A DNA stretch of 64,000 nt from Escherichia phage vB_EcoM_PTE-Eco05, in the sequence record PQ306573.1; one strand, 5' to 3'. Below the pieces are notes generated by a model, which made no database searches, was not told where the DNA came from, and was given only the letters and a program-made list of their open reading frames with translations. The position numbers and the translations under genes are program-made. Positions 16,707 through 36,179 of the stretch are shown piece after piece. The first letter of the stretch is position 1. The number at the start of each line of letters is the position of its first letter.

Positions 16707-17294
16707 ATGCTTAAATTAGTATTCGCATGTGCTCCGACTAAAACAGTTGATGATAAACTGGAATATGCTTTTGGATTAGGTGATGGACTTCCATGGAAGC
16801 ATATCAAACAAGATATGAGTAACTTTGTTGCTCGCACTAAAAACACTGTAATGGTTATGGGTGCTAAGACATTTGCATCATTACCTCGTCTACTCCCAGA
16901 TCGTACTCATGTGGTTGTCACTGATATGGCCAGAGAACTGCCTAGGACCAAAACCAACGAACTTGCGCGTTTCTATATCACCCAATCTGAATTTATTACC
17001 TTGGTAATGGGTGGTGAAATTAACCTGTTTAGCACTGCAACTGACGTACCATTTAAACTTTCTACTGAACATGTTGATGTATCTGTTATTGGTGGCCCTG
17101 CTTTATTGAAACAAGCATTGCCTTATGCTGATGAAATCGTGATGACTAAAATCATTAAGAAATGTCGTGTTAATTCCGATGTTCAACTTGATAAAGATTT
17201 CGTCCAAGATATTATGCTTCAACGTTCTATGGTAGAATCTCATTACTACAGAATCGATGAACTCACCGAAATTACTGAGAGCGTTTATAAATGA
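16707..17294 (+). CDS. frd: dihydrofolate reductase
   Basis: 195 aa; GLGDGLPW, VMGAKTF, VIGGPALL motifs; strong similarity to T4 Frd. Confidence 0.92.
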   Translation: MLKLVFACAPTKTVDDKLEYAFGLGDGLPWKHIKQDMSNFVARTKNTVMVMGAKTFASLPRLLPDRTHVVVTDMARELPRTKTNELARFYITQSEFITLVMGGEINLFSTATDVPFKLSTEHVDVSVIGGPALLKQALPYADEIVMTKIIKKCRVNSDVQLDKDFVQDIMLQRSMVESHYYRIDELTEITESVYK

Positions 17295-19509: not shown

Positions 19510-20934
19510 ATGCAAGTAACTAAGAGCAGTGGTGTATCCCAAAATTTTGATGCACAGAAAATTATTCAAGTCTTAACTTGGCAATGTGAAGGAACACAAA
19601 TTGACCCATATGAATTGTACGAAGAAATTAAGACCCATCTTGTCGACGGGATGAGCACCAAAGATATCCAGAAGATTTGTATTAAAGTTGCAGCTAACTC
19701 GATTTCTGTCGAAGAACCTGATTATCAGTATGTCGCCGCCAAAGGGCTAATGTTTGCACTTCGTAAAGATGTATATGGGCAGTTTGAACCGCCTGCTTTT
19801 ATCGACCATATTTCTTATTGTGTTAATGAAGGCAAATATGACCCTGAGCTGTTGTCTAGATATTCTGCAGAAGAAATCATTTATCTTGATTCTCGGATTA
19901 AACATGAGCGAGATTTTGACCTGACTTATGCTGGTGCTATGCAGCTTAAAGAAAAATACCTGGTTAAAGATAAAACAACTGGGAAGATTTATGAAACTCC
20001 ACAGTTTGCTATCATGGCTATCGGTATGGCCTTACACCAAGACGAAACTCATGACCGTTTGAAACATATTATTCGTTTTTATGATGCCGTTTCTACTCAT
20101 CAAGTTTCATTGCCAACCCCAATTATGGCAGGTGCTCGTACTCCAACTCGCCAGTTCTCTAGTTGTGTAGTTATTGAAGCCGGTGATTCGTTAAAATCTA
20201 TTAACAAAACTTCAGCATCAATTATTGAATATATTTCTAAACGAGCTGGTATTGGTATCAACGTTGGTATGCTTCGTGCAGAAGGTTCTAAGATTGGTAT
20301 GGGTGAAGTTCGACATACAGGTGTTATTCCATTTTGGAAACATTTCCAAACTGCAGTAAAATCTTGTTCTCAAGGTGGTATTCGTGGTGGTGCTGCTACA
20401 GCGTATTATCCGATGTGGCACTTAGAAGTAGAGAACCTATTAGTTCTGAAAAATAACAAAGGCGTGGATGAAAACCGTATTCGACATATGGACTACGGAA
20501 TTCAGATTAATGACCTCATGATGGAACGCCTTGGTAAAAATGATTATATTACTTTATTTAGCCCTCACGAAATGTCAGGCGAACTATACTACTCGTTCTT
20601 TGAAGATCAAGATAAATTCCGTGAGCTTTATGAGAAAGCTGAAAAAGACCCAACAATCAGAAAGAAAAGAATCAAAGCACTAGAACTCTTTGAATTGTTC
20701 ATGACTGAACGTTCTGGTACTGCTCGAATTTATCCACAGTTTGTTGATAACACGAATAACTACACTCCGTTTATTCGTGAAAAAGCTCCAATTCGTCAGA
20801 GTAACTTATGTTGTGAAATCGCTATTCCAACTAATGATGTGAATAGCCAACAAACCCGTTTAATCAAAATTAAGAAGTCGGATGTAGCTAAGTTTTATGA
20901 AGCTAATCCTGGCGGTATAATTCAAAGCAAATAA
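19510..20934 (+). CDS. nrdA: ribonucleotide reductase alpha subunit, N-terminal piece (NrdA-a)
   Basis: 474 aa; ends ...SNLCCEIAIPTNDV (class Ia active-site Cys/Glu motif) followed by a 30-aa non-homologous tail and stop. Confidence 0.9.
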   Translation: MQVTKSSGVSQNFDAQKIIQVLTWQCEGTQIDPYELYEEIKTHLVDGMSTKDIQKICIKVAANSISVEEPDYQYVAAKGLMFALRKDVYGQFEPPAFIDHISYCVNEGKYDPELLSRYSAEEIIYLDSRIKHERDFDLTYAGAMQLKEKYLVKDKTTGKIYETPQFAIMAIGMALHQDETHDRLKHIIRFYDAVSTHQVSLPTPIMAGARTPTRQFSSCVVIEAGDSLKSINKTSASIIEYISKRAGIGINVGMLRAEGSKIGMGEVRHTGVIPFWKHFQTAVKSCSQGGIRGGAATAYYPMWHLEVENLLVLKNNKGVDENRIRHMDYGIQINDLMMERLGKNDYITLFSPHEMSGELYYSFFEDQDKFRELYEKAEKDPTIRKKRIKALELFELFMTERSGTARIYPQFVDNTNNYTPFIREKAPIRQSNLCCEIAIPTNDVNSQQTRLIKIKKSDVAKFYEANPGGIIQSK

Positions 20935-20979
20935 AGTACACAGACCGTTAATAAATAATCCATAACAAGAGGAAAAGTT

Positions 20980-21690
20980 ATGGATTATTCTAAAATTTAC
21001 AATAACCTTATTTCTAAAGCTAAGAATAGAAAATTAGATTGCTATACCGAATCACACCATATTATACCTCTGTGTATTGGTGGTTCTGATACAAAGGAAA
21101 ACCTGGTAGATTTGACACCAGAAGAGCATTACATAGCTCATCAATTATTAGTAAAGATATATCCAGATAATCATAAATTGATATTTGCCGCTAATATGAT
21201 GTGTGTTTATTCTAAAGATAATATTGAACGAAAGAACACCAATAAACGCCATGGGTGGCTTAGAAGAAAATTGGCTATTTCTGTATCTGAAAATAATAAA
21301 GGCAAACCAGCTTGGAACAAAGGTATTCCTATGTCTCCAGAAGTTAAATCTCGACTTCAAACATCTTGGGTGTTTACATTTCCGGATGGTCATGAGGAAA
21401 TTCATCGAGGTCTTAACGAATTTTGTAAAGAGCATAATTTAAATCCATCTGCAATGTCAGCCGTTTGTAAAGGTAAACGGGCGCATCACAAAGGATTTAA
21501 GTGTAAGAAATTGGATAAGATTTCAGAGCTTGATAATTTAGTTTTCGTCAGTAAACCTCATCCAAAGGGATTAAAACCCCATAACTTAATTGCTGTAAAA
21601 ATAAACGGTATAGAATATCAATCAATACATCGAGCATCTAAAGCTTTAGGAATTACTAGAAAAAAGGTAGAAGAATTAAATGAATATTGA
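20980..21690 (+). CDS. HNH homing endonuclease (MobE-like) inserted within nrdA
   Basis: 236 aa; HNH motif ESHHIIPLCIGGSDTKENLVDLTPEEHYIAH; own RBS GAGGAAAAG; stop overlaps the start of the downstream nrdA piece. Confidence 0.8.
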   Translation: MDYSKIYNNLISKAKNRKLDCYTESHHIIPLCIGGSDTKENLVDLTPEEHYIAHQLLVKIYPDNHKLIFAANMMCVYSKDNIERKNTNKRHGWLRRKLAISVSENNKGKPAWNKGIPMSPEVKSRLQTSWVFTFPDGHEEIHRGLNEFCKEHNLNPSAMSAVCKGKRAHHKGFKCKKLDKISELDNLVFVSKPHPKGLKPHNLIAVKINGIEYQSIHRASKALGITRKKVEELNEY

Positions 21691-22669
21691 TTATGAATTT
21701 GTAGATGAATTTTACGAAGATGATGAGTATACTACAATAAAAGTTATTGAAAACAAGGGAGAAGTGGGGCTTTGTACTCTCTCTGCATTCGTATTAGATA
21801 AATTTGATTGGCAAGACCAAGATAAAATTAATGAACTTGCTGAAGTACAAGTACGTGCACTTGATAACCTGTTAGACTATCAAGATTATCCGGTTCCAGA
21901 AGCTTTAAAAGCTAAAAAGCGTCGTAATCTTGGTGTTGGTGTTACGAACTATGCTGCATGGTTAGCTTCTAACTTTGCTTCATATGAAGACGCTAACGAT
22001 TTGACTCATGAATTGTTTGAGAGATTGCAATATGGCCTTATCAAAGCATCAATCAAACTCGCCAAAGAAAAAGGATGTTGCGAGTATTATTCAGACACTA
22101 AATGGTCTAGAGGCGAATTACCTATCGACTGGTACAATAAAAAGATTGACCAAATCGCAGCCCCGAACTACGTCTGTGACTGGGAAGAACTTCGAGCTGA
22201 ACTCAAAGAACATGGAATTCGTAACTCAACGTTGTCTGCACTCATGCCTTGTGAGTCAAGCAGTCAAGTATCGAACTCTACAAACGGGATTGAGCCCCCA
22301 CGTGGTCCAGTAAGTATTAAAGAATCTAAAGAAGGCAACTTCCGACAGGTTGTTCCTAATATCGAACATAACATGAGTCTTTACGACTACGCGTGGAAAC
22401 TTGCTAAGAAAGGTAATAAACCTTATTTGACCCAAGTTGCTATCATGTTGAAATGGGTGTGCCAATCTGCTTCTGCTAATACTTACTACGACCCTGCAGT
22501 ATTTGAGAAAGGTAAAGTGCCAATGTCAGTAATGCTTGACGATCTGCTTTACTTCTGGTACTTTGGCGGAAAAAACCTCTACTATCATAACACCCGTGAT
22601 GGGTCAGGTACAGATGACTATGAATTAGAAACACCTAAAGCTGAAGATTGCTCTGCTTGTAAGCTTTAA
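21680..22669 (+). CDS. nrdA: ribonucleotide reductase alpha subunit, C-terminal piece (NrdA-b)
   Basis: 329 aa; after a ~29-aa leader continues GEVGLCTLSAFVLD...; ends with C-terminal CSACKL cysteine pair typical of NrdA. Confidence 0.9.
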   Translation: MNIDYEFVDEFYEDDEYTTIKVIENKGEVGLCTLSAFVLDKFDWQDQDKINELAEVQVRALDNLLDYQDYPVPEALKAKKRRNLGVGVTNYAAWLASNFASYEDANDLTHELFERLQYGLIKASIKLAKEKGCCEYYSDTKWSRGELPIDWYNKKIDQIAAPNYVCDWEELRAELKEHGIRNSTLSALMPCESSSQVSNSTNGIEPPRGPVSIKESKEGNFRQVVPNIEHNMSLYDYAWKLAKKGNKPYLTQVAIMLKWVCQSASANTYYDPAVFEKGKVPMSVMLDDLLYFWYFGGKNLYYHNTRDGSGTDDYELETPKAEDCSACKL

Positions 22670-22724: not shown

Positions 22725-24994
22725 ATGAGTACAGTTTTTAATACACAACAAGTCGATGTTTTGAACGAACCGATGTTCTTTGGTTCTGGTCTTGGTCTTG
22801 CACGGTATGATATTCAGCGTCATAAAGTTTTTGAAGAACTTATAGAAAAATCCTTGTCATTTTTCTGGCGCCCCGAAGAGGTAAACTTAATGTTGGACTC
22901 TGCACAGTTCAATAAGCTTCCTCAGTTCCAACAGGACATCTTTACAAACAATCTTAAGTATCAATCATTATTGGATTCTATCCAAGGCAGGGCCCCATCT
23001 GCGGTACTTATGGCACTGCTTTCCGACCCTTCATTAGATACGTGGGTTGCAACATGGACATTCAGTGAAACTATTCACTCTCGTTCATATACTCATATTA
23101 TGCGAAATCTTTATACCGATCCATCCAAAGTATTTGATGAGATTGTATTAGACGAAGCAATCATGAAACGAGCTGAATCAATAGGTAAATATTACGATGA
23201 TGTTCTAGTCAAGACTCGTAATTGGGAAAATGCTAAAGAATTTGTAGAACTAGCTAAAGAATCTCCTGATGCCGACTTTCGTTTAAACCGAGCTATTAAA
23301 CAAGAAGCCGAAGCTAAACGTGCTTTAATGAAATCTCTTTACCTCTGTTTGCACGTTATTAATGCCTTAGAAGCTATTCGTTTTTATGTATCTTTTGCGT
23401 AAAATGCGCCTTTAAACGGTAACGTTTATCGAAAACTCCTTTAATTGCTGGAAAGTCCTTTATAGGAAAACTAGCAGCCAAGGTTTTGCTTGCACCTTTA
23501 ATTAGTATAATATAAATATGATTATACTTTTAAGAGGATGCACAATTGAACTATAGAAAAATTTGGATAGATGCTAACGGACCTATACCTAAAGATTCTG
23601 ATGGAAGAACATACGAAATCCATCATAAAGACGGTAACCGTGAAAATAATGATTTAGATAATTTGATGTGCCTTTCTATACAGGAACATTATGATATACA
23701 TTTAGCTCAAAAAGATTACCAGGCTTGTCATGCTATAAAGCTTAGAATGAAATATTCTCCTGAAGAAATTTCTGAATTAGCTTCTAAAGCCGCAAAATCT
23801 AGAGAAATCCAGATTTTTAATATCCCTGAAGTACGAGCTAAAAATATTGCCTCTATTAAATCTAAGATAGAAAATGGTACATTTCATCTTTTAGACGGTG
23901 AAATACAGCGTAAATCTAATTTAAATAGAGTTGCATTAGGTATACATAATTTTCAACAAGCTGAGCATATTGCAAAAGTTAAAGAACGCAATATTGCAGC
24001 TATAAAAGAAGGTACTCATGTATTTTGCGGTGGTAAAATGCAGTCAGAAACTCAATCAAAACGGGTAAATGACGGTTCACATCATTTCTTGTCAGAAGAC
24101 CATAAGAAAAGAACATCAGCAAAAACATTAGAAATGGTTAAGAACGGAACCCATCCTGCACAAAAAGAAATCACATGTGATTTCTGCGGTCACATTGGTA
24201 AAGGTCCTGGATTTTATCTAAAACATAATGACAGATGTAAATTAAATCCAAATAGAATTCAATTGAATTGTCCATATTGTGATAAGAAAGATTTATCACC
24301 ATCAACATATAAACGATGGCACGGCGACAATTGCAAAGCAAGGTTCAACGACTAGTCTTCGGACGTAGGGTCAAGCGACTCGAAATGGGGAGAATCCCTC
24401 TGGGATTGTGATATAGTCTGGTCTGCATAGTAATATGTAGCAGTTCATAAGAGAACGGGTTGAGAATTAGCGAGCTCAATCGAACATAACGGTACCTTTA
24501 ACTTCCATAAGAACATGGAAATTATGGAAGGTAATGCAAAGATTATGAAGTTCATTGCTCGTGACGAACAACTCCATCTCAAGGGTACTCAGTACATTAT
24601 CCGTCAACTTCAATCTGGTACTGATGGCGATGAGTGGGTTCAAATTGCTAAAGAATGTGAACAAGAAGCAGTTGACATTTTTATGGAAGTAAATCGTCAA
24701 GAGAAGGAATGGGCTGCACACCTCTTTAAAGACGGTACATGTCCAGGTATCAATACGCAGAGTATGTGTGCTTTTGTTGATTACTTGACTGTGTCTCGTA
24801 TGAAACAGTGTGGTTTGCCATGCCCAATCACTGATGCTCCGACCAAGCATCCGTATCCTTGGATTCGTGAATATCTTAACTCTGATTTAGTTCAAGCAGC
24901 TCCTCAGGAAGTTGAAATCAGTTCTTATCTTGTTGCACAAATTGATAATGATGTGGACCAAAATGTAATCAATTCATACAAAAAATATTTCTAA
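22725..24994 (+). CDS. nrdB: ribonucleotide reductase beta subunit, interrupted by a group I intron; CDS = join(22725..23400, 24492..24994)
   Basis: Exon 1 ...LEAIRFYVSFA plus T of a Cys codon; exon 2 resumes GT ACC TTT AAC... giving CTFNFHKNMEIMEGNAK...; joined product about 392 aa. Confidence 0.85.
23401..24491 (+). mobile_element. group I intron in nrdB (about 1091 nt) carrying I-TevIII
   Basis: Exon 1 ends with T (23400), intron ends with G (24491); frame is restored only by this join; boundaries inferred, not matched to a reference. Confidence 0.75.
23546..24355 (+). CDS. I-TevIII: HNH homing endonuclease I-TevIII (full-length, intron-encoded)
   Basis: 269 aa; HNH motif YEIHHKDGNRENNDLDNLMCLSIQEHYDIH and C-terminal Cys-rich zinc finger (CDFCGH...CPYC); length matches the intact RB3-type I-TevIII as recalled. 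Confidence 0.85.
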   Translation: MNYRKIWIDANGPIPKDSDGRTYEIHHKDGNRENNDLDNLMCLSIQEHYDIHLAQKDYQACHAIKLRMKYSPEEISELASKAAKSREIQIFNIPEVRAKNIASIKSKIENGTFHLLDGEIQRKSNLNRVALGIHNFQQAEHIAKVKERNIAAIKEGTHVFCGGKMQSETQSKRVNDGSHHFLSEDHKKRTSAKTLEMVKNGTHPAQKEITCDFCGHIGKGPGFYLKHNDRCKLNPNRIQLNCPYCDKKDLSPSTYKRWHGDNCKARFND

Positions 24995-25477: not shown

Positions 25478-26611
<1,134 letters not shown>

Positions 26612-26613
26612 TG

Positions 26614-26643
26614 GTTTACAAACACCAAGGAAGGTGTTACTAT
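26614..26643 (+). promoter_or_regulatory. early-type promoter (GTTTAC ... TGTTACTAT)
   Basis: GTTTAC 26614-26619 and TACTAT 26638-26643, upstream of the ATG at 26674. Confidence 0.55.
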
Positions 26644-26673
26644 GGCTTTTATCAACAACATGAGGAGAAAATT

Positions 26674-27174
26674 ATGAATATGCAATTGATTACTAATGAT
26701 ATGGTCGTAACCACTTTTGGAGACACAACTGACGGAATCCGGGTCTTTAAGAAAGGACGTCCAGTTGGTTATCTTACTGACCTCCGTGTTACACTGGCCA
26801 AAAATCTTAAAAAGAAAGTAAAACAAAAAGAGTATTCCACCCGATACGCTGAAGAGAAACGCGAAGCGATGCCGGAAGCAGTTAATGCCATGGTAGAATT
26901 TCTTCAAAACAATTTGACTAAATACGACGCTAATGTGTTTATTAATATTAGTCAACCAAACGTACATATCGCAGGTATAAAATTCTACATTATTTGCGAC
27001 CCTCTTACCGACAAATTCAACCGCCTCGGAATTTCAAGCCCGTATCATACAGCAGAAGAGTTGTGTGTATTGTTTGAATCGTACAAAATCCAGTGTGATG
27101 GTTTGAAAACCGTTCTTATCAATGGATTATCCCGAGATGAAATCATTGAGATTATTAAAACATGCTTAAAGTAA
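26674..27174 (+). CDS. hypothetical early protein, Alc-like by position and size (166 aa)
   Basis: ORF-track entry trimmed to the ATG at 26674 behind GAGGAG, downstream of the early promoter; T4 has alc (167 aa) between rnlA and the pseT.3/.2 spanins; identity not verified. Confidence 0.5.
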   Translation: MNMQLITNDMVVTTFGDTTDGIRVFKKGRPVGYLTDLRVTLAKNLKKKVKQKEYSTRYAEEKREAMPEAVNAMVEFLQNNLTKYDANVFINISQPNVHIAGIKFYIICDPLTDKFNRLGISSPYHTAEELCVLFESYKIQCDGLKTVLINGLSRDEIIEIIKTCLK

Positions 27175-27518
27175 ATCCTATTTACGCTATAGTAGCAGCT
27201 TTTGCTCTAGTTTCTACGGTAACAATAGTTGTCTTAAACAACAAAGTTGATTCGTTGAATACTGAATTAGCTTCTGTCAAAGAGACTGCTAAAAACAATG
27301 CTAAAGTATTAGATGACTTCAAGGTTCAATATCAGTCAATCGAAGAAATGACTTATAAGAACCGTGTTTTAGTTGACCAACTTAAGGCTGAAAATGAAAA
27401 GCTCCGTAAGGATTCGAAGAAGAAGAACGTGGTGGCAAGTAAACCAGGATTGGTCGAAAAACAAATCAACAGGTCCTTCGATTCCTTTGCAGAAGACCTC
27501 AGGAAGCTCTCAGAATGA
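27162..27518 (+). CDS. i-spanin (inner-membrane spanin, PseT.3-like)
   Basis: 118 aa; N-terminal transmembrane segment PIYAIVAAFALVSTVTIVVL followed by charged coiled-coil region; overlaps the o-spanin start. Confidence 0.8.
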   Translation: MLKVNPIYAIVAAFALVSTVTIVVLNNKVDSLNTELASVKETAKNNAKVLDDFKVQYQSIEEMTYKNRVLVDQLKAENEKLRKDSKKKNVVASKPGLVEKQINRSFDSFAEDLRKLSE

Positions 27519-27805
27519 TTAAATTAACCGCAGTTGTATTATCTATTGGCATTTTGGCTGGATGTGCCCAGGATGTGCTCTTAAGCCCTAAAGAAACTTT
27601 ACATCCGCCATGGCCTGAATCTATTGTTGAATATAACCAGAAATGGCAAGTAAAGGTTATTGATGGTAATCCGTGGGTTGGAATGCCATTTGAAGACTCT
27701 CAAGAATTTCGTATCTGGTTAAACGACGTAAAAAGATATGTACATGACCAGAAGACTATGTTATGTTATTATCGTAGTGGTTTAAAAGAGGAAAAATGCC
27801 AATGA
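27515..27805 (+). CDS. o-spanin (outer-membrane lipoprotein spanin, PseT.2-like)
   Basis: 96 aa; lipoprotein signal with lipobox LAGC (MIKLTAVVLSIGILAGCAQ). Confidence 0.8.
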   Translation: MIKLTAVVLSIGILAGCAQDVLLSPKETLHPPWPESIVEYNQKWQVKVIDGNPWVGMPFEDSQEFRIWLNDVKRYVHDQKTMLCYYRSGLKEEKCQ

Positions 27806-28020
27806 CTAAAGAACAGCATGAATACATTAAAGGGCTTATCTATGAATCTGAAATGGCGGCTATGATTTATGGACGCCAGATTCAACGATTAGAATCTTTG
27901 CCTCCGACTAATGACCGCTTGTTAGTTCAGTCTCGTGCTAATCTGAAAAATGAATATCAGAATAAGTGGGCAGTAGCGACTAAAGCTCTTCATGAGTATA
28001 TTGAATCTTTAGTAAAATAG
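27796..28020 (+). CDS. hypothetical protein (pseT.1 position)
   Basis: 74 aa ORF overlapping the o-spanin stop. Confidence 0.5.
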   Translation: MPMTKEQHEYIKGLIYESEMAAMIYGRQIQRLESLPPTNDRLLVQSRANLKNEYQNKWAVATKALHEYIESLVK

Positions 28021-28049
28021 TTTACAAACTCTCGGGAGCAGAGTATAAT
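28020..28049 (+). promoter_or_regulatory. early-type promoter (GTTTAC ... TATAAT)
   Basis: GTTTAC 28020-28025, 18-nt spacer, TATAAT 28044-28049, then RBS GAGGAAAT and ATG at 28078. Confidence 0.55.
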
Positions 28050-28077
28050 GCTCCTATGGATAATTGAGGAAATCTAA

Positions 28078-28376
28078 ATGAAAACATTACTAGAGAATTA
28101 CATCAAACGGTCTGATGAGTATATTGATATCTGCCGTGGAATGTCACTTGTAGATTATGGCAAAGATGCAGCAAAGGCACTAGATGAAGCAGGTAAAGCT
28201 CTTCGTAAAGCTGCTAAAGAAAAAGGGTTGGATTTGCAACAACTCAAAAGTCATATGATTAAATTTATTTCTTCAAACGTTAGAAGTACGTCAATTAATA
28301 AAAACGTTGCTGAAATTAATAAAGACCGGCGCGAGCATAACATTCGTATTCTTGAAACTTTCTTAGGAATAAAATA

Positions 28377-28377
<1 letters not shown>
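28078..28377 (+). CDS. hypothetical early protein (99 aa)
   Basis: ORF track; own promoter and RBS. Confidence 0.55.
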
Positions 28378-29464
<1,087 letters not shown>

Positions 29465-29656
29465 ATGAAACGATTATATGAAGTGATTGAGGCCATCGAA
29501 CATCATAAAGAATATTTGTTTGTAGCCTGGCCTTTAGTAAATGGACAGTTCGGTATTGATGTGCTGGACTATGAGCATGAAGAACGTTTGGACGGCGGTA
29601 TATTTGATAACGTCGACCAGGCAATTGAATGGTTAAATGAAAACTATGTACGATAA
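29465..29656 (+). CDS. hypothetical protein (63 aa)
   Basis: ORF track; starts 1 nt after the pseT stop. Confidence 0.5.
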   Translation: MKRLYEVIEAIEHHKEYLFVAWPLVNGQFGIDVLDYEHEERLDGGIFDNVDQAIEWLNENYVR

Positions 29657-29861
29657 ACATCATGAAATAGAAGATGAAGCATACAAAATGCTTCGTAAAC
29701 TAGTGGGACTTAATATGAGTCCTACATTAATCAACAAACTCGCAGGAATTCGTAATGATCTGAATACTCGTTACAAAGGTGAATATCATGTAGAGTTTGT
29801 TCCTGTAGGTGAACCAACCGAGCGATTTGTTGTTCGAGTTAAAGTAAATACTGTGCACTGA
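29637..29861 (+). CDS. hypothetical protein (74 aa; start uncertain)
   Basis: ORF track; alternative ATG a few codons in. Confidence 0.45.
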   Translation: MKTMYDKHHEIEDEAYKMLRKLVGLNMSPTLINKLAGIRNDLNTRYKGEYHVEFVPVGEPTERFVVRVKVNTVH

Positions 29862-29868
29862 GGTAATT

Positions 29869-30144
29869 ATGTTCCCTAAATATTCTGAAATTGTAAAGGT
29901 AGTCTTCAGTCAGATTATTGCTAATAATATGTTTGAAGTGCTTGATAATGCAGCCGAACTCAGAGTTCATGCTCAACTAACTCATGTACTCAATGCTTTG
30001 CTCCCAGACCAAGTAGATTCTATTGCTATTACTCTTCTCCCTGGGTCTGCACACGTCATAGTGGTATTTGATCTTGACGGCGATTTAGTTATCCAATGTG
30101 ATATCAATTTCGGTACACAAAAAATTGAATGCAAAGCAATTTAA
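29869..30144 (+). CDS. hypothetical protein (91 aa)
   Basis: ORF track. Confidence 0.5.
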   Translation: MFPKYSEIVKVVFSQIIANNMFEVLDNAAELRVHAQLTHVLNALLPDQVDSIAITLLPGSAHVIVVFDLDGDLVIQCDINFGTQKIECKAI

Positions 30145-30146
30145 TG

Positions 30147-30176
30147 GTTTACAACATGGTGGAGTTGTGATACTAT
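30147..30176 (+). promoter_or_regulatory. early-type promoter (GTTTAC ... TGTGATACTAT)
   Basis: GTTTAC 30147-30152 and TACTAT 30171-30176. Confidence 0.55.
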
Positions 30177-30204
30177 AACTCTACCAACAAATGAGGAAAT
30201 AGAA

Positions 30205-30441
30205 ATGCTAAGTGAAAACCCAATTACAGTACACGAATTTCAGATTAAAGTAAAAGAATTTGCTCAAGCACTCATCAATAAAGTGTCTGAACGTTTCCAA
30301 GATGCAACATTACGAGTTATTCAAGAATCTCCACGTTCTTTTCTCATAATCGTTAATCCTAAAGATGGTGACCAAATTACTAATCTTAAATTAGGCAGTG
30401 ATGGTCTTGTTGAAGCAACTCGAGTATATGGAACACTATAA
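30205..30441 (+). CDS. hypothetical protein (78 aa)
   Basis: ORF track; RBS GAGGAAAT. Confidence 0.5.
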   Translation: MLSENPITVHEFQIKVKEFAQALINKVSERFQDATLRVIQESPRSFLIIVNPKDGDQITNLKLGSDGLVEATRVYGTL

Positions 30442-30561
30442 TGAGAGCTATCTCATTACTATCGAGAATGGTCATAAATCTGAGCACTACCAACTTAGCC
30501 TGTCTAATCCGGTTAAAGGTATTGTTGAATCAGAATCTGTTTATATCTCCTAAGGATTGTT

Positions 30562-31554
30562 ATGTTACCTGTCGTCAGAAAACTTATTTCTCCAAAAGAA
30601 CTGGCTGAGATTATTCCTTTGTCGGAAGCTTACGCATCACAAGTGGCTTCTCATCGCGAACAAGTTAATTCGATTATGAACGGTGAAGACCCACGCAAAC
30701 TTATTGTTGTAGGTCCTTGTTCAATTCATGACCCTATTGCTGCTGTTGAATACGGCAAACGTCTGGCTGAACTTCAAACTCGTCTTCCTAATGTTCTGTT
30801 AGTGATGCGCGTTTATTTTGAAAAGCCTCGAACTACCGTAGGTTGGAAAGGTCTTGTAAATGATCCATATCTTGACGGAAGTTTTGATATGAACCACGGT
30901 CTTATAGTTGCACGAACATTGTGTCGTAAACTTCTACGTATGGGACTTCCATTAGCAACTGAAGTATTAGACCCATTCACGATTAAGTATCTTTCTGGTA
31001 TTTTCTCATGGGTTGCTATTGGCGCCCGTACGACTGAAAGTCAGACACATCGTGAAATTGCTTCAGGTCTACCGATGTGCGTAGGCTTCAAGAACGCAAC
31101 CAATGGTTCTATTAAAGTAGCTACAGACGCGATGTATAGTGCCGCGCGGCCTCATCGGTATATGGGTATGGACGTCGATGGTACTGTAGGCATTGTTGAA
31201 GCTGAAGGTAATCAGAATACGCATATCGTATTGCGTGGCGGGACTAACGGCCCGAACTATCATTCTTCTGATATTCAAGAAGCTTCTAACAAAGCAAGTG
31301 CAGTAGGTCTGAATCATTATGTAATGGTTGACTGTAGCCATGCAAACGCTGCTGGGCATTATAGCAATCAAATTGGTATTGGTAAAAATTTAGCAGCTAA
31401 TGATTTGGTCAAAGGAATTATGATAGAATCATTCCTACATGAAGGAAATCAAAAAATTTCTGATAATATGTCCTATGGCGTTTCCGTTACTGATGCGTGC
31501 ATCAGTTGGGAACAAACTAAAGAGCTGTTAACTTATATTAATAAGGTTCAATAA
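30562..31554 (+). CDS. 3-deoxy-D-arabino-heptulosonate-7-phosphate (DAHP) synthase, class I (AroG/AroF/AroH type)
   Basis: 330 aa; motifs GPCSIHDP, YFEKPRTTVGWKGL, IGARTTESQTHREIASGL, VGFKN, LRGG, DCSHANA align along the full length of E. coli AroG as recalled; RBS TAAGGA; stop overlaps the cd ATG by 1 nt. Confidence 0.88.
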   Translation: MLPVVRKLISPKELAEIIPLSEAYASQVASHREQVNSIMNGEDPRKLIVVGPCSIHDPIAAVEYGKRLAELQTRLPNVLLVMRVYFEKPRTTVGWKGLVNDPYLDGSFDMNHGLIVARTLCRKLLRMGLPLATEVLDPFTIKYLSGIFSWVAIGARTTESQTHREIASGLPMCVGFKNATNGSIKVATDAMYSAARPHRYMGMDVDGTVGIVEAEGNQNTHIVLRGGTNGPNYHSSDIQEASNKASAVGLNHYVMVDCSHANAAGHYSNQIGIGKNLAANDLVKGIMIESFLHEGNQKISDNMSYGVSVTDACISWEQTKELLTYINKVQ

Positions 31555-32135
31555 TGAAAGCTAGCACATACCTTCAGATTGCATATCTGATTTCTCAAGA
31601 ATCAAAATGTTGTTCATGGAAAGTTGGTGCCGTCATTGAAAAAGATGGACGCATTATTTCTACAGGTTATAATGGCTCTCCTTCAGGTGGTACAAACTGT
31701 TGCGAACATGCATCCGAAAACGGCTGGTTGAAGAATAAACCAAGCCCGGTCATCGTTGCTGGACATAAAGAAGGCACTACAGCATTTGGACGGGCAGATA
31801 ATTTTGTTTTGGCTAAAGAACATCGGGCCGCTCATAGTGCATGGTCTGCTAATAACGAAATCCATGCTGAATTGAATGCCATTTTGTTTGCAGCTCGTAA
31901 AGGTAATTCTATTGAAGGTGCTACGTTATATACGACACTTTCTCCATGTCCTGATTGCACTAAAGCTATCACACAGTCAGGCATTAAAAAGGTTGTATAT
32001 GCAGAATTATATGACCGGTCTCCTGAAAATTGGGCAGACATTCTAAAACAAGCCGGTATTGAAGTAATTCAGTACTCTCGTAATAATCTTCGTTCTCTGA
32101 ATTGGGAACAAATTCGAAACTTTTGTGGTGAATAA
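31554..32135 (+). CDS. cd: dCMP deaminase
   Basis: 193 aa, MKASTYLQIAYLISQESKCCSWKVGAVIEKDGRIISTGYNG...HAELNAI...SPCPDC matches T4 Cd. Confidence 0.95.
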   Translation: MKASTYLQIAYLISQESKCCSWKVGAVIEKDGRIISTGYNGSPSGGTNCCEHASENGWLKNKPSPVIVAGHKEGTTAFGRADNFVLAKEHRAAHSAWSANNEIHAELNAILFAARKGNSIEGATLYTTLSPCPDCTKAITQSGIKKVVYAELYDRSPENWADILKQAGIEVIQYSRNNLRSLNWEQIRNFCGE

Positions 32136-32136
32136 T

Positions 32137-32433
32137 ATGATTTTAACTGAACAAGAAACTATGGTTCTTCGTGAACGTATTAAAACTATTCTGTCTGTAG
32201 GTGTTCATTGTGTTGTATTTGAAAAGGCTAATGGTGATGTTCGTACGATGTTTGCCTCCCGTGATGAACTTGAAGTCAAATATGAAAATAGTAACCCATC
32301 AACAGAAGTTCGTTCTGAACCTCGTGAATCAGTTCGAGCATTCGATACCAAGTTAGGTCAGTGGCGTTCTTTCCGCCTTGATAAAGTAATTTCGGTTGAT
32401 GGTACTCCGGTAGAACGTTTGCTTCTTATGTAA
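32137..32433 (+). CDS. hypothetical protein (98 aa)
   Basis: ORF-track GTG start trimmed to ATG at 32137, directly after the cd stop. Confidence 0.5.
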   Translation: MILTEQETMVLRERIKTILSVGVHCVVFEKANGDVRTMFASRDELEVKYENSNPSTEVRSEPRESVRAFDTKLGQWRSFRLDKVISVDGTPVERLLLM

Positions 32434-32490
32434 TATGCTTTACGAATAGTATGGTATTATTAATCTATCGTCAAACAACAAGGAAATAAG

Positions 32491-32823
32491 ATGTCTGAAG
32501 TACAACTCCCAATTCGTGCTGTTGGTGAATATGTCATTCTGGTTTCTGAACCCGCTCAAGCAGGTGATGAAGAAGTTACCGAATCAGGACTTGTGATTGG
32601 TAAACGTGTTCAAGGTGAAGTTCCTGAACTATGTGTAGTTCATTCTGTAGGTCCTGATGTTCCTGAAGGTTTTGTTGAAGTCGGTGATTTGACTCCACTA
32701 CCAGTTGGACAAATTCGAAATGTTCCACATCCATTTGTGGCTTTGGGACTTAAACAACCTAAAGAAATTAAACAGAAATTCGTAACATGTCACTATAAAG
32801 CTATTCCGTGTCTTTATAAGTGA
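32491..32823 (+). CDS. 31: co-chaperonin gp31 (GroES-like)
   Basis: 110 aa, [34 protein letters not shown]...KAIPCLYK, near-identical to T4 gp31. Confidence 0.95.
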
Positions 32824-32947
32824 TATAAATAACTATATGAAGAGAACACTCTTCTAAGCGGTAGCCTACAACTGAGAGACTTGTCGAAAGAAGGTGAAAT
32901 TCAGACGAACGTGGCTACTAAATATTATCTCGAATTGAGAATTTAAA

Positions 32948-33196
32948 ATGATTAAACAATTACAACACGCTCTTGAACTGCAACGAAACGCATGGAATAA
33001 CGGTCACGAAAACTACGGCGCGTCAATTGATGTTGAAGCCGAAGCACTGGAAATCCTGCGTTATTTCAAACATCTGAACCCGGTACAGGCAGCTTTGGCC
33101 TCTGAACTGGAAGCAAAAGATGAACTGAAATATGCTAAGCCTTTGGCTTCTGCAGCTCGTAAAGCAGTACGTCATTTTGTTATTACCCTTAAATAA
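32948..33196 (+). CDS. rIII: lysis inhibition accessory protein RIII
   Basis: 82 aa, MIKQLQHALELQRNAWNNGHENYG...RKAVRHFVITLK, near-identical to T4 RIII. Confidence 0.95.
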   Translation: MIKQLQHALELQRNAWNNGHENYGASIDVEAEALEILRYFKHLNPVQAALASELEAKDELKYAKPLASAARKAVRHFVITLK

Positions 33197-33490
33197 GTTT
33201 TAGGTGATTCGCTACCTTAGTGCGGCTAGAAAATCGAGGAGCCGTCGAACTGTCTGATTAATGATTTGCGAATCATTATAGTTTTAAGACCCCGACAGTT
33301 TTACGGTGTACCTCTTGAATGTATTTTGTACTATCACGCGTCAGAAAAAGGTTATCTGTCTAAGTCGTGGTTGGTATGATGACGGGTTTATGGTTATCCT
33401 GTCGTTAAATATCCAAAACCTATGTTCCCCTTGAGGGCTTGCGCAGGCAATGTCAATAAGTCCTGCATTTTCATTTAAAGAGAATTTATA

Positions 33491-33670
33491 ATGGCAAAAC
33501 AAGCTAAAGCAAAGAAAGCAGTCGAAAAGAAAGTTGATGGTACCTCTAAACGCGCTGGATACAAGCGTGGGTCGAACTCTCGTATTAATCAAACAGTTGA
33601 GAAGATCATGCGCAGAGCACGTGCAGTTCTTCGAGATGATGCTTCTCGTTTTGGAAAGGTTGTTGCATAA
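33491..33670 (+). CDS. hypothetical small basic protein (59 aa), absent from the ORF track
   Basis: ATG at 33491 to TAA at 33668-33670; Lys/Arg-rich (MAKQAKAKKAVEKKVDGTSKRAGYKRGSNSR...); followed at once by a UUCG terminator hairpin. Confidence 0.45.
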   Translation: MAKQAKAKKAVEKKVDGTSKRAGYKRGSNSRINQTVEKIMRRARAVLRDDASRFGKVVA

Positions 33671-33675
33671 TTTTA

Positions 33676-33693
33676 GGGAGACTTCGGTCTCCC
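33676..33693 (+). terminator. rho-independent terminator (GGGAGAC-UUCG-GUCUCCC plus U-run)
   Basis: Same 18-nt hairpin as after gene 32, followed by TTTT. Confidence 0.7.
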
Positions 33694-33730
33694 TTTTGTG
33701 AGTTTAGGGCAGAAAAAGTTTAAAAAAGAT

Positions 33731-33759
33731 GTTTACTCTCCTGTAGGATGTGTTACTAT
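33731..33759 (+). promoter_or_regulatory. early-type promoter (GTTTAC ... TGTGTTACTAT)
   Basis: GTTTAC 33731-33736, 17-nt spacer, TACTAT 33754-33759; precedes the block of ORFs upstream of ligase. Confidence 0.55.
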
Positions 33760-33800
33760 AGACTTGTACCACCTAATCAATAAAACAACCGGAGAATAAA

Positions 33801-34166
33801 ATGAACTACATCAACTTCGAACGCAAATATGTTTCTAACGGTATCGCTGGTTCTATCGATATGGTTTGCTTGTGGAAGCATAAAAATGGTTCAGTATGTG
33901 AAATTGAGCAGTATATGACTCCTAATTACGTTTATATGCGCTTTGAAAATGGTATCACGGTTTCAATCACGATGGAAGGTTCCAACTTCAAAATTGCATT
34001 AGATGACGATTTCCGTCAACGTGATTTAGGTACTCATCCTTGCTGGAACGGTGTTAATCGTAAACTTCTGGTTAAAACTTGGATTCGTCATATCCTGAGT
34101 AACCGAGCTAAACCTGAACATCTCGAAGCAATCTTTGATGTAGTTCTTAACGAATTCGATATCTAA
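33801..34166 (+). CDS. hypothetical protein (121 aa)
   Basis: ORF track; RBS GGAGAATAAA. Confidence 0.55.
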   Translation: MNYINFERKYVSNGIAGSIDMVCLWKHKNGSVCEIEQYMTPNYVYMRFENGITVSITMEGSNFKIALDDDFRQRDLGTHPCWNGVNRKLLVKTWIRHILSNRAKPEHLEAIFDVVLNEFDI

Positions 34167-34173
34167 TTTAACT

Positions 34174-34189
34174 GGGAGCCGAAGCTCCC
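34174..34189 (+). other. GC-rich hairpin (GGGAGC-CGAA-GCTCCC)
   Basis: 6-bp stem with 4-nt loop between two ORFs; no U-run on the plus strand; reads as a UUCG loop on the minus strand. Confidence 0.4.
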
Positions 34190-34205
34190 TATTGAGGAAA
34201 ATATT

Positions 34206-34493
34206 ATGTTTATGACCACTTATTTCGATACTCGTAAAAATTTCTGTGAAGTTGTTTTCTCTAAAGCAGGTAAAGATGTTCCTGCCGACAAACAGCCCAC
34301 TCGTGAATCCATTAAGGCTTATGCTGATGTGGTTTGTCCAGTAGAATTCCGTACAGTCAATGGTCGTGACACCCTAGCAATCACTAAGCTCAACTATGAT
34401 ATTAACATCGACCCTAGCGCCGCAAGTGAAGTCAATACCTCTGACATCTATGGCGGTAATGTTAAATCACACGGATTTCAGATGAGGTTCTAA
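34206..34493 (+). CDS. hypothetical protein (95 aa)
   Basis: ORF track; RBS GAGGAAAAT. Confidence 0.5.
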   Translation: MFMTTYFDTRKNFCEVVFSKAGKDVPADKQPTRESIKAYADVVCPVEFRTVNGRDTLAITKLNYDINIDPSAASEVNTSDIYGGNVKSHGFQMRF

Positions 34494-34687
34494 TGCAACT
34501 ATTCTTATCACAAACTGTCCAGTTAAAAGGTATAGGTATCCCCGGAATGATTTCAAAGGTTTTACATGCTTTTAAAATTAACGGTAATGTAATTAAAGAA
34601 GCCTATGCAGTCCTGTGGGTTGATGGAACTGAAGACGTCCGCATGAGCCAAGAACTGTCTGTAATCAAATGTTTAAAGCGAGGATAA
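34493..34687 (+). CDS. hypothetical protein (64 aa)
   Basis: ORF track; overlapping start/stop with neighbours. Confidence 0.45.
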   Translation: MQLFLSQTVQLKGIGIPGMISKVLHAFKINGNVIKEAYAVLWVDGTEDVRMSQELSVIKCLKRG

Positions 34688-34688
34688 T

Positions 34689-34907
34689 ATGTTTAAGAAA
34701 CTGATGCAGAAATTGTTTGGTACGGAAATGATCGAAGTTACTTATCGTGTAACAGACGTTTTTCCATATTATGCAGAAAACCGTTTAGAACCATACGTTA
34801 CGTCAATTAAAATGCCTAAAAACGATGGAAATTTATCTATCGAAGACCGTATACCTGGATACGGTCATTGGGCTGATGTTGAAATTATAAGTGTTAAAGA
34901 TGTCTGA
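34689..34907 (+). CDS. hypothetical protein (72 aa)
   Basis: ORF track. Confidence 0.45.
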   Translation: MFKKLMQKLFGTEMIEVTYRVTDVFPYYAENRLEPYVTSIKMPKNDGNLSIEDRIPGYGHWADVEIISVKDV

Positions 34908-35358
34908 ATTAGAAATAAGAAGTAATTTCAAGTGGCCGTCATGTGCATTAAGTAACTTTGCTCAATGGTCTTTTGTTATGGATGGTATTCAATTCGGAGG
35001 TCTTGAAGGATTTCTCCAAGGATGTAAGGTGAAAAATGTTGAACAACAAAGACGTATATTTGGGCTGTCTGGATTGGCTGCACAGCAAGCTGGAAGGTCT
35101 TATGCAAGAGCTCAGGACCGTGGGACTCTCTTCTGGTTAGGAGTTCCATTTTCAAGATACTCCGAAGCATGGAAAGAATTATACACAAATGCATATTTTG
35201 AAGCCGCGATCCAAAACAAAGGGTTTCGTGATGCGTTACAAGCCTCTAAAGGAAAAATTTTGAAGCACAGCATGGCCAGCCACCTAACAAAAGATGATAC
35301 AATACTAACTGAAGCTGAATTTATTGATGTGTTAAACCTATTAAGAGACTCTTTATGA
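34891..35358 (+). CDS. NADAR-like (YbiA/DUF1768-like) domain protein
   Basis: 155 aa; SNFAQW...DG...LEGFLQGCKV and ...AAQQAGRSYARA...EAWKELYTNAYFEAAIQNKGFRDAL resemble the SNFA.W / E.YFQ..KF / AARMGR motifs of E. coli YbiA as recalled; start may be the internal ATG at about 34900. Confidence 0.55.
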   Translation: MLKMSELEIRSNFKWPSCALSNFAQWSFVMDGIQFGGLEGFLQGCKVKNVEQQRRIFGLSGLAAQQAGRSYARAQDRGTLFWLGVPFSRYSEAWKELYTNAYFEAAIQNKGFRDALQASKGKILKHSMASHLTKDDTILTEAEFIDVLNLLRDSL

Positions 35359-36179
35359 AGCCTACTATTTTGACTGATATTGATGGTGTATGTTTAAGCT
35401 GGCAATCTGGACTTCCTTATTTTGCCCAAAAATATAATCTCCCATTAGAACATATTTTAAAAATGATTCAGGACGAAAAATTTATTTCTCCTGGTAAACT
35501 ATTCAATACCGACGATAACCTTGGTAAACAATTAATAGAAAAATATAATAGCTCTGATTTTATTCGTTACTTAGCGCCTTATTCGGATGCTCTTCGAGTT
35601 ATCAATAAACTAAAAGAAGACTATAATTTTGTAGCCGTGACGGCGCTAGGTGATTCAATTGATGCTCGATTGAATAGACAATTTAATTTGAATGCTTTGT
35701 TCCCAGGCGCTTTCTCTGAAGTAATGATGTGTGGTCATGATTCTTCAAAGGAACAATTATTTGAACTAGCTAAAACAAAATATAACGTGATTTGTTACGT
35801 TGACGATTTAGCTCATCACTGTGACCATGCAGCAGAAATTCTTAATGTACCGATTTATTGGTTGGCTCGTGGTGAACGTGATGCCATTCCTCGTACTGCA
35901 CAACGTGTACACACGTGGGATGATATTGAATCTCATTTGGTTCCACCTGAGCATAATTCAGATTCAGATCGTGAAGACCTTTTAAAACGATTGGCGGATT
36001 TGCTTAAAGAATCTGGTGCAACAAGTCCAGGTGCATGGCCTAATCAAATTGGTGGCCCCTCGACAACACGTACTCCATATACCTGGCGAACCCCAGGACC
36101 AACTGATATGCAGCCGTGGTGGACGATTCAAAACTTTCCTTTAGATTCGTCTAAATGGACTTGGTCTATAAATTGTTAA
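35355..36179 (+). CDS. HAD-superfamily hydrolase-like protein (putative nucleotidase/phosphatase)
   Basis: 274 aa; N-terminal HAD motif I ILTDIDGV; C-terminal ~50 aa has unusual Pro/Trp/Thr-rich composition. Confidence 0.6.
   Translation: MKPTILTDIDGVCLSWQSGLPYFAQKYNLPLEHILKMIQDEKFISPGKLFNTDDNLGKQLIEKYNSSDFIRYLAPYSDALRVINKLKEDYNFVAVTALGDSIDARLNRQFNLNALFPGAFSEVMMCGHDSSKEQLFELAKTKYNVICYVDDLAHHCDHAAEILNVPIYWLARGERDAIPRTAQRVHTWDDIESHLVPPEHNSDSDREDLLKRLADLLKESGATSPGAWPNQIGGPSTTRTPYTWRTPGPTDMQPWWTIQNFPLDSSKWTWSINC

Follow-up and report, generated by a model that had tools for sequence, protein, structure and literature searches.

A class I-alpha DAHP synthase with altered inhibitor-pocket residues in the pseT-cd-31 segment of a T4-like Escherichia phage

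Why a T4-like phage should carry a gatekeeper of host aromatic metabolism, and whether such an enzyme would obey the feedback control of its host counterparts, are the questions raised by positions 30562..31554 of Escherichia phage vB_EcoM_PTE-Eco05 (sequence record PQ306573.1; a stretch of 64,000 nucleotides was analysed and is called the window below, and all features described in it by coordinates with two dots lie on the + strand). The enzyme in question, DAHP synthase (DAHP, 3-deoxy-D-arabinoheptulosonate 7-phosphate), condenses phosphoenolpyruvate (PEP) and erythrose-4-phosphate (E4P) to DAHP; in the host, TyrR and TrpR repress aroF, aroG and aroH, the products of which are subject to feedback inhibition. 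The original prediction, made from the sequence alone, took the ATG-start open reading frame (ORF) of 330 amino acids at this locus for a class I DAHP synthase coupled to the dCMP deaminase gene cd and possibly freed from aromatic feedback. On balance, the analysis described here favours a catalytically competent, early-expressed and feedback-insensitive phage DAHP synthase, which would keep carbon flowing into the shikimate pathway during infection.

The assignment to the family was established at the levels of motif, profile, fold and catalytic residue. All five diagnostic motifs that had been named were present in the translation, namely GPCSIHDP (residues 51-58), KPRTTVGWKGL (88-98), IGARTTESQTHRE (153-165), VGFKN (174-178) and DCSHANA (257-263). 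The protein matched Pfam PF00793 (DAHP_synth_1) with 253.5 bits against a cutoff of 25.5 (2.2e-75), passed the NCBIfam equivalog TIGR00034 (aroFGH; 428.8 bits against 173.2) and NF009395 (457 bits against 343), and matched the DAHP synthase protein family PHROG 5045 at 3e-181, and the scores for the NCBIfam AroG equivalog (365.6 bits against 568) and AroH subfamily (385.6 bits against 463) stayed below their cutoffs. The best solved relative was the Tyr-sensitive AroF of E. coli (PDB 6agm, 4.8e-105), and the identities to E. coli AroF, AroG and AroH were 51%, 47% and 43%, respectively. A model built by AlphaFold2 on an alignment of 57 sequences (predicted local distance difference test 93.3, predicted template modelling score 0.92) was superposed by Foldseek on the N. 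meningitidis enzyme NmeDAH7PS and E. coli AroG with template modelling scores of 0.95-0.97 and root-mean-square deviations of 1.2-1.5 Å, and displayed a (beta/alpha)8 barrel with the I-alpha decorations, that is, the N-terminal helices and the beta6a/6b hairpin (strands 198-203 and 209-214). For the active site, we take the metal ligands of AroG to be C61, H268, E302 and D326 (after the structures of Shumilin et al.), its PEP-binding residues to be R92, K97, G163, A164, R165, K186 and R234, and KPRT(T/S) to be the motif for the phosphate of E4P. The corresponding metal ligands C53, H260, E289 and D311 were invariant in the query, 10 phage homologues, the three E. coli isozymes and an alignment of 123 sequences, and the PEP and E4P residues R83, K88, P89, R90, T91, G154, A155, R156, K177 and R225 were kept. 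The whole AroG-equivalent catalytic set, including P98, R99 and T100, was invariant in the query and the 10 diverse phage homologues; compared with E. coli AroF (PDB 6AGM/6AGL), to which it is 51% identical over the full length, the phage enzyme shares the (beta/alpha)8 fold and does not differ in the residues for metal, PEP and E4P. As far as sequence analysis can reach, the ORF is securely a class I-alpha DAHP synthase, and the conserved active site makes it very probable that the protein is active.

Recruitment for another chemistry, for example the joining of PEP to a pentose phosphate in the manner of 3-deoxy-D-manno-octulosonate-8-phosphate (KDO8P) synthase to give a sugar for DNA or surface modification, linked to the arabinosylated hydroxymethylcytosine (arabinosyl-hmC) of these phages, has in its favour that DAHP and KDO8P synthases belong to one Pfam family, that lipopolysaccharide is loosely mentioned in the phiC120 genome paper (PMC8022965) and that arabinosyl-hmC is found in Mosigvirus DNA (PMC6024577). 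Such a function is nevertheless very improbable, the KPRTT motif for the E4P phosphate and all DAHP synthase substrate residues being intact, all NCBIfam matches at E<=0.001 being to DAHP synthase models with none returned for KdsA (KDO8P synthase), and no sugar-activating genes standing beside the gene in any genus examined. The link to arabinosyl-hmC was discarded: RB69, in which this modification was discovered, is without the gene, and the RB69 paper is silent on it.

The inhibitor pocket was compared between 24 members of the phage clade and the 95 nearest bacterial homologues. The catalytic Cys is preceded by 52 residues in the query, and by 60, 61 and 59 residues in AroG, AroF and AroH, respectively, which bears out the shorter N-terminus of the original prediction; the range is 48-52 in the phage clade and 58-95 in the bacteria, with one exception at 53. 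The clade is thus without 8-9 N-terminal residues, and the equivalents of AroG 1-8, including Asp6 and Asp7, are missing. At the position of AroG Gln151, Lys or Arg is found in 24 of the 24 phage sequences (K142 in the query) and Gln in 93 of the 95 bacterial ones; at Ser180, all 24 have Pro (P171 in the query), against Ser in 92 of 95; at Pro150, Ile is found in 23 of 24, against Pro in 87 of 95; and at Phe209 every phage sequence has Tyr. Relative to AroF, these differences amount to 9 fewer N-terminal residues and the exchanges Q152 to Lys, S181 to Pro, P151 to Ile and F210 to Tyr. In the AroG-Phe and AroF-Tyr complexes, the inhibitor's main chain is bound by the side chains at Q151/Q152 and S180/S181, AroG P150L and S180F are feedback-resistant, and Gln151 has been implicated in inhibition by Phe (PMC9529685). 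In yeast, ARO4 Q166K is a feedback-resistant allele (PMC5879953), and Q166 aligns with AroG Q151 in the PDB alignment, so that the phage clade natively carries a feedback-resistance substitution of Gln by Lys. Among the known resistant enzymes (AroG P150L, S180F and D146N; AroF P148L; ARO4 Q166K and K229L), the overlap with the phage changes lies at Q151/Q166 (to Lys), S180 and P150; in contrast to those engineered or selected enzymes, the changes in the phage are natural, combined with one another and with the N-terminal truncation, and fixed in the clade, D146 and P148 are unaltered, and resistance of the phage enzyme is a prediction. Gln151, Ser180 and the N-terminal segment (AroG 1-9), which a feedback-regulated isozyme should keep, are not kept. 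Escape of the phage enzyme from aromatic feedback, which had been suggested from the N-terminus, is strengthened by the replacement of two inhibitor-contacting residues throughout the clade, and these comparisons make it somewhat more probable than continued inhibition. A shared concept, a DAHP synthase freed from aromatic feedback for a specialised demand, is offered by PhzC of P. aeruginosa (PMC6435475); PhzC is a type II enzyme entirely without the allosteric elements, whereas the phage enzyme is of type I-alpha and has kept these elements with changed residues.

The phage enzymes form a lineage of their own. In the best 120 database relatives a sharp break was seen between 24 sequences with 55-99% identity and 319-343 amino acids, the named ones of which are from phages, and bacterial proteins with at most 55% identity (nearest 48-55%) and 341-388 amino acids. 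In a neighbour-joining tree of 123 sequences the phage group was monophyletic in 100 of 100 bootstraps and did not lie nearer to enterobacterial AroF than to homologues of other phyla. The homologue search proposed with the original prediction therefore returned a phage-only clade and not a recent host-derived copy: capture from an enterobacterial host in recent time was rejected, AroF (51%) being no closer than homologues from Planctomycetota and Pontiella. The composition of the gene (GC 0.41; GC content at third codon positions, GC3, 0.287) was within the range of its phage neighbours (GC3 0.14-0.36), as compared with 0.50-0.57 in E. coli aroF, aroG and aroH (0.29 against 0.50 for aroF), which answers the comparison with flanking genes that had also been proposed. 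The ratio of nonsynonymous to synonymous substitution (dN/dS) between genera was 0.14-0.24, and the gene is under purifying selection across genera. The neighbours of the phage clade in the tree, two bacterial DAHP synthases (P0109 and P0110), likewise have an altered pocket, with Q, A, G, P and H at AroG positions 146, 150, 151, 180 and 209, respectively; their N-termini are long, and the chromosomal context is ordinary, with uvrC, pgsA and a TRAP transporter (locus L015, 8001-9083). As ordinary bacterial chromosomal genes they were set aside as the source of the phage gene, and their pairing with the clade may reflect convergence or long-branch attraction.

The role that these features suggest depends on the course of infection. 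Infection by T4-like phages brings host transcription to a stop through Alc and breaks down host DNA through DenA, and the genes for both were found in the neighbourhood of this window. With transcription blocked and DNA degraded, host aroF, aroG and aroH could not be derepressed, and the DAHP synthase already present in the host would remain feedback-inhibited. The phage enzyme, whose gene would probably be transcribed early from a conserved promoter that lies upstream of cd.2 and whose translation would go in tandem with that of cd, would most likely not respond to Tyr, Phe or Trp by reason of its rebuilt pocket and the loss of N-terminal residues that help to close the pocket, and would keep PEP and E4P flowing to chorismate regardless of the pools of aromatic amino acids. 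Phe, Tyr and Trp, together with chorismate-derived cofactors such as folate, would thereby be supplied. Of the residues in the phage proteins encoded in the window, 4.2% are Phe, 3.9% Tyr and 1.3% Trp; the value for Tyr is high relative to the usage of E. coli, a bias that T4 has without the gene. Folate supply would be an attractive link, the gene lying in the frd-td-nrd-cd block of nucleotide genes. Any specific benefit to the phage is held with less confidence than the escape from feedback.

The expression assumed in this role was judged from the signals around the gene. A site resembling an early promoter (TTTACA-17-TACTAT with TG; 30148..30176) was found between cd.3 and cd.2 by a consensus scan, and its sequence is conserved with the T4 region between cd.2 and cd.3 for which the early promoter Pe133295 is annotated; no terminator-like site was found by the scan on the + strand from this site to cd. 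A Shine-Dalgarno sequence AAGGA (30552..30556) is directly seen with a spacer of 5 nucleotides to the ATG of the DAHP synthase gene, in agreement with the ribosome-binding site of phage type proposed before, and the orthologues in Entb_45, PEi26 and P545 are likewise preceded by AAGG. Downstream, the TAA stop (31552-31554) and the ATG of cd (31554-31556) share one A in the overlap TAATG (31552..31556), which is compatible with translational coupling of DAHP synthase and cd. The claim of coupling held for this one-nucleotide overlap but not beyond it: it stems from the cd.2/cd junction of the phage backbone, and in other genera cd.1 or further small ORFs separate the two genes, so the tight junction is local and is not a conserved property of the DAHP synthase-cd pair.

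Several observations weigh against an early-expressed enzyme that is free of feedback and of use to the phage, and each of them bears on an alternative. In the pocket, D147 and P148 of AroF, the selectivity residue Gly at the position of AroG S211 (Tyr-type) and the beta6a/6b hairpin stay wild-type and AroF-like throughout the clade, which makes residual or altered regulation possible. The phage enzyme might accordingly be an ordinary Tyr-regulated isozyme of the AroF type that adds DAHP synthase capacity and tolerates its pocket substitutions with feedback inhibition kept, and the match to Tyr-sensitive AroF as best solved structure would fit this; it is unlikely, however, with Q151 and S180, the two residues that bind the inhibitor's main chain, exchanged in every one of the 24 clade members but in under 4% of the nearest bacterial homologues, with the N-terminal 8-9 residues missing and with the same or similar substitutions conferring feedback resistance in ARO4 and AroG (PMC5879953, PMC9529685). 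The segments equivalent to AroG 144-153 and 175-181, moreover, are near-invariant in the phage clade, with entropies of 0.07 and 0.00 bits, respectively, against 0.96 bits for the whole protein and 0.78 and 0.44 bits for the same segments in bacteria. Invariance of this kind looks more like a conserved function than like a decaying, switched-off site, and could be accounted for either by a pocket that has been re-tuned or by structural constraints that the active site close by imposes. In the former case the pocket would bind another effector (a nucleotide, chorismate, prephenate or a protein partner) and a phage-specific signal would regulate entry into the shikimate pathway. That the segments are more conserved than in bacteria although clade members are only 53-99% identical, that a charged Lys or Arg is the new residue in 24/24, and that the gene stands among allosterically controlled nucleotide genes (cd here; frd, td and nrdAB upstream) all speak for such re-tuning. 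It is rated as unlikely too, if a little less so than the ordinary isozyme: no data point to a ligand, the segments lie about 8.5 Å from the active site (PMC9529685), so that their invariance may be structural or catalytic, and the lost N-terminus favours a less complete pocket over a new one. There is about an even chance that the gene represents a private lineage of class I-alpha, kept and passed around by T4-like enterobacterial phages, with a rebuilt, strictly conserved pocket (Ile-Lys in place of Pro-Gln, Pro in place of Ser, shortened N-terminus), either a feedback-proof shikimate gatekeeper or one responsive to a phage effector, by which the phage would control the entry of carbon into aromatic and folate synthesis.

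As regards expression and use, the promoter scan overall gave 20 sites against 21.7 in shuffled sequence, and because it did no better than the shuffles, early co-transcription of cd.2, the DAHP synthase gene and cd from the site at 30148-30176 is likely but only inferred. The gene is also dispensable to some phages: T4 has cd.1 alone in the slot and no DAHP synthase, as the original prediction had it, and RB69 and about 10 other Mosigvirus records are without the gene, as compared with about 139 that have it. In phage G53 (vB_EcoM_G53, MK327943; locus L014, 601-1648), a tandem duplication of 55 bp shifts the frame of the DAHP synthase gene after about residue 249, before the DCSHAN motif, and the record annotates a misc_feature only; if the duplication is not a sequencing artefact, the gene would be dispensable for laboratory propagation. 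Finally, the literature search found no experimental study of any phage DAHP synthase, only mentions at the level of annotation. The absence of the gene from T4, RB69 and the other Mosigvirus records and its frameshift in G53 would suit a passenger (moron) carried from one T4-like phage to another by recombination with little or no benefit to them, as would its insertion as a cassette at a microhomology junction and its proportion of synonymous differences (pS) of 0.022 from phage JS09, against 0.21-0.22 in the flanking cd and pseT, which is consistent with recent horizontal spread. Such a passenger is improbable, given dN/dS of 0.14-0.24 with 100% retention of catalytic residues across genera, full amelioration to the codon composition of phages, residence at a single locus across no fewer than seven genus-level groups, and presence in about 139 of about 150 Mosigvirus-like records. 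A feedback-insensitive enzyme that serves the phage, rather than a neutral passenger or a regulated isozyme, remains the favoured explanation.

The surroundings of the gene and its mode of arrival were then defined from the comparison of related genomes. The window around it is the pseT-cd-31 segment of a T4-like phage, with pseT, cd.4, cd.3, cd.2 (DUF7320), a WYL_2/31.1 protein, gp31 and rIII as neighbours; the nearest records are Mosigvirus of the JS09/HX01 type, and the DAHP synthase protein is 100% identical to the copy of vB_EcoM_G2285. No match at gathering thresholds was returned by an Rfam scan of the window. The downstream partner cd (31554..32135) encodes a dCMP deaminase of 193 amino acids (Pfam dCMP_cyt_deam_1, 1.6e-26). 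In the pseT-cd slot a phage DAHP synthase is held by at least seven genus-level groups of T4-like phages, and the order pseT ... cd.3 - cd.2 - DAHP synthase - (0-2 small ORFs) - cd - 31.x - 31 - rIII is conserved in Mosigvirus, Kanagawavirus, Winklervirus, Kagamiyamavirus, Marfavirus and Bragavirus. In Serratia phage X20 the small ORF between DAHP synthase and cd is a cd.1 homologue (30% identity, E 2e-10). No companion shikimate genes were found beside the DAHP synthase gene in the other genera, the intervening ORFs being a cd.1 homologue or without a Pfam match, with one weak HNH/NUMOD3 match. The latter ORF, of 189 amino acids, lies between DAHP synthase and cd in Klebsiella phage vB_Kpn_P545 (locus L006, 3980-4549); its NUMOD3 score is barely above the Pfam cutoff and its HNH scores are below, and it may be a homing endonuclease in this slot.

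In RB69, cd.2 adjoins cd via the same TAATG, and about 11 Mosigvirus-like records keep this junction uninterrupted. Collinearity of the window with RB69, at 96.5%, extends to 30456 and is taken up again at 31551. The resident cd.2 (30205..30441; DUF7320, 1.5e-35) is of RB69 type, with 96% amino acid identity to RB69 cd.2, and is followed by a small ORF (30398..30553) that represents the 3' half of a second, foreign cd.2 (SYLITIE...VESxSVY) and marks the left end of the cassette; it matches DUF7320 positions 43-76 at 1.3e-6 and PHROG 1504 positions 41-76, and aligns with the cd.2 of Kanagawavirus and Marfavirus, not with the resident copy. The inserted segment is framed by an imperfect direct repeat of 14 nucleotides with the consensus TAATGA(G/A)AGCTA(T/G)C, the two copies of which are 1113 bp apart and correspond to the junction of the cd.2 stop and the cd start: the left copy TAATGAGAGCTATC (30439..30452) holds the cd.2 stop and a vestigial cd start, and the right copy TAATGAAAGCTAGC (31552..31565) the true cd start. 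The left copy matches the right one, and the single RB69 cd.2/cd junction, in 12 of 14 bases. The N-terminal 43 residues of cd were identical across the phage cd proteins compared and would thus provide a substrate for homologous recombination. The simplest history suggested by these junctions is that an RB69-like backbone received a cassette [cd.2 - DAHP synthase - cd] by recombination with another T4-like phage, with a homologous right crossover inside the 5' end of cd and an illegitimate left crossover at the microhomology AGCTA. By these comparisons the gene is a phage-adapted yet laterally acquired module in this lineage; the description of it as a resident phage gene therefore stood in so far as contamination by host DNA and chimeric assembly were ruled out (composition phage-like, identical junctions in about 139 Mosigvirus records), and was modified in that the gene is accessory and laterally inserted here.

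A sliding comparison of window positions 25562-35700 with JS09 (locus L001) displayed a mosaic of patches at 83-92% and at 97-100%, the DAHP synthase gene lying in a patch of 98-100%, which is consistent with frequent recombination among Mosigvirus genomes. A selective sweep was not retained as the cause of the low pS, the whole region being a mosaic of patches at 83-100%. Two further observations were made on the related records. The cd of RB69 (locus L002, 7743-8252) is annotated with 169 amino acids and ends in '...ILKPSWY' and a stop, whereas the window, JS09 and the other genera run on through '...ILKQAGIEVIQYSRNN...' to 193 amino acids, and the short end looks like an RB69-specific frameshift or sequencing error. 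Shigella phage JK45 (locus L013, NC_054940) is placed in Tequatrovirus by taxonomy; its DAHP synthase region is 99.4% identical to the window and its gene order is RB69-like, for which misclassification or a mosaic genome is a possible explanation.

The distribution of the gene was wide. By megablast it was found at 95% identity or more in 139 phage records, and by tblastn homologues were found in 212 records, including T4-like phages of Klebsiella, Enterobacter, Edwardsiella, Serratia, Erwinia, Proteus and Providencia. Most records are labelled phospho-2-dehydro-3-deoxyheptonate aldolase, DAHP synthase or aroF in GenBank, and the PHROGs category of phrog_5045 is 'moron, auxiliary metabolic gene and host takeover'. 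Among the ORFs listed in the genome paper of the Mosigvirus phiC120 (PMC8022965) is one with a DAHP synthetase domain, and the copy of Kanagawavirus KLB31 was proposed in a 2025 paper as an auxiliary metabolic gene (AMG) for amino acids (PMC11845039). These PHROG 5045 orthologues (JS09_0232, phiC120 ORF64, the KLB31 DAHP synthetase) are the same gene as the one described here, with 95-100% nucleotide identity in the 139 records and 55-77% amino acid identity at the same locus in other genera; the Mosigvirus copies do not differ from that of the window, and the published notes on them end at annotation or at the AMG hypothesis. The gene is a host-type metabolic enzyme gene inside a bona fide phage genome, and its proposal as a candidate AMG agrees with the PHROG category; the novelty implied in that proposal was not sustained, phage DAHP synthase being already known and catalogued. 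The present contribution consists of the pocket signature seen throughout the clade, the conservation of the locus and the scar left by the insertion.

Apart from this locus, three genes of nucleotide metabolism in the window appeared to be interrupted. In 17291-18708 the thymidylate synthase gene td seems to be broken, its N-terminal part (Pfam positions 1-175 of 266) ending at 17842 and being followed by an ORF for an I-TevI-like GIY-YIG endonuclease (17965-18708), as in the td group I intron of T4; no td intron was found by Rfam at the gathering threshold. In 19510-22669, the nrdA gene falls into two parts (barrel positions 1-221 and 219-523) split by an ORF for an I-HmuI/NUMOD-like homing endonuclease (20980-21690); a split nrdA is annotated in 34 phage records, including Tequatrovirus-type ones at 99% identity, and the nrdA of JK45 is intact with 751 amino acids. 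In 22725-24994, the two parts of nrdB (22725-23402 and 24515-24994) have between them an ORF for an HNH_3 endonuclease (23546-24355), which matches the 'intron-like DNA endonuclease' of JK45.

The significance of the phage DAHP synthase would be modest unless biochemistry confirms a naturally deregulated or re-regulated enzyme. Natural variants with and without the gene, such as JS09-type phages and RB69, respectively, are at hand for tests of fitness. If naturally feedback-insensitive, the enzyme would be a ready-made, evolution-tested resistant DAHP synthase for the engineering of aromatic compounds, and the gene would provide a clean example, from an enteric phage, of an AMG that bypasses both the allosteric and the transcriptional control of the host. 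Isolates of Mosigvirus and related T4-like phages are widely obtained for use in phage therapy and biocontrol, and this gatekeeper of host aromatic metabolism is present in most of them.

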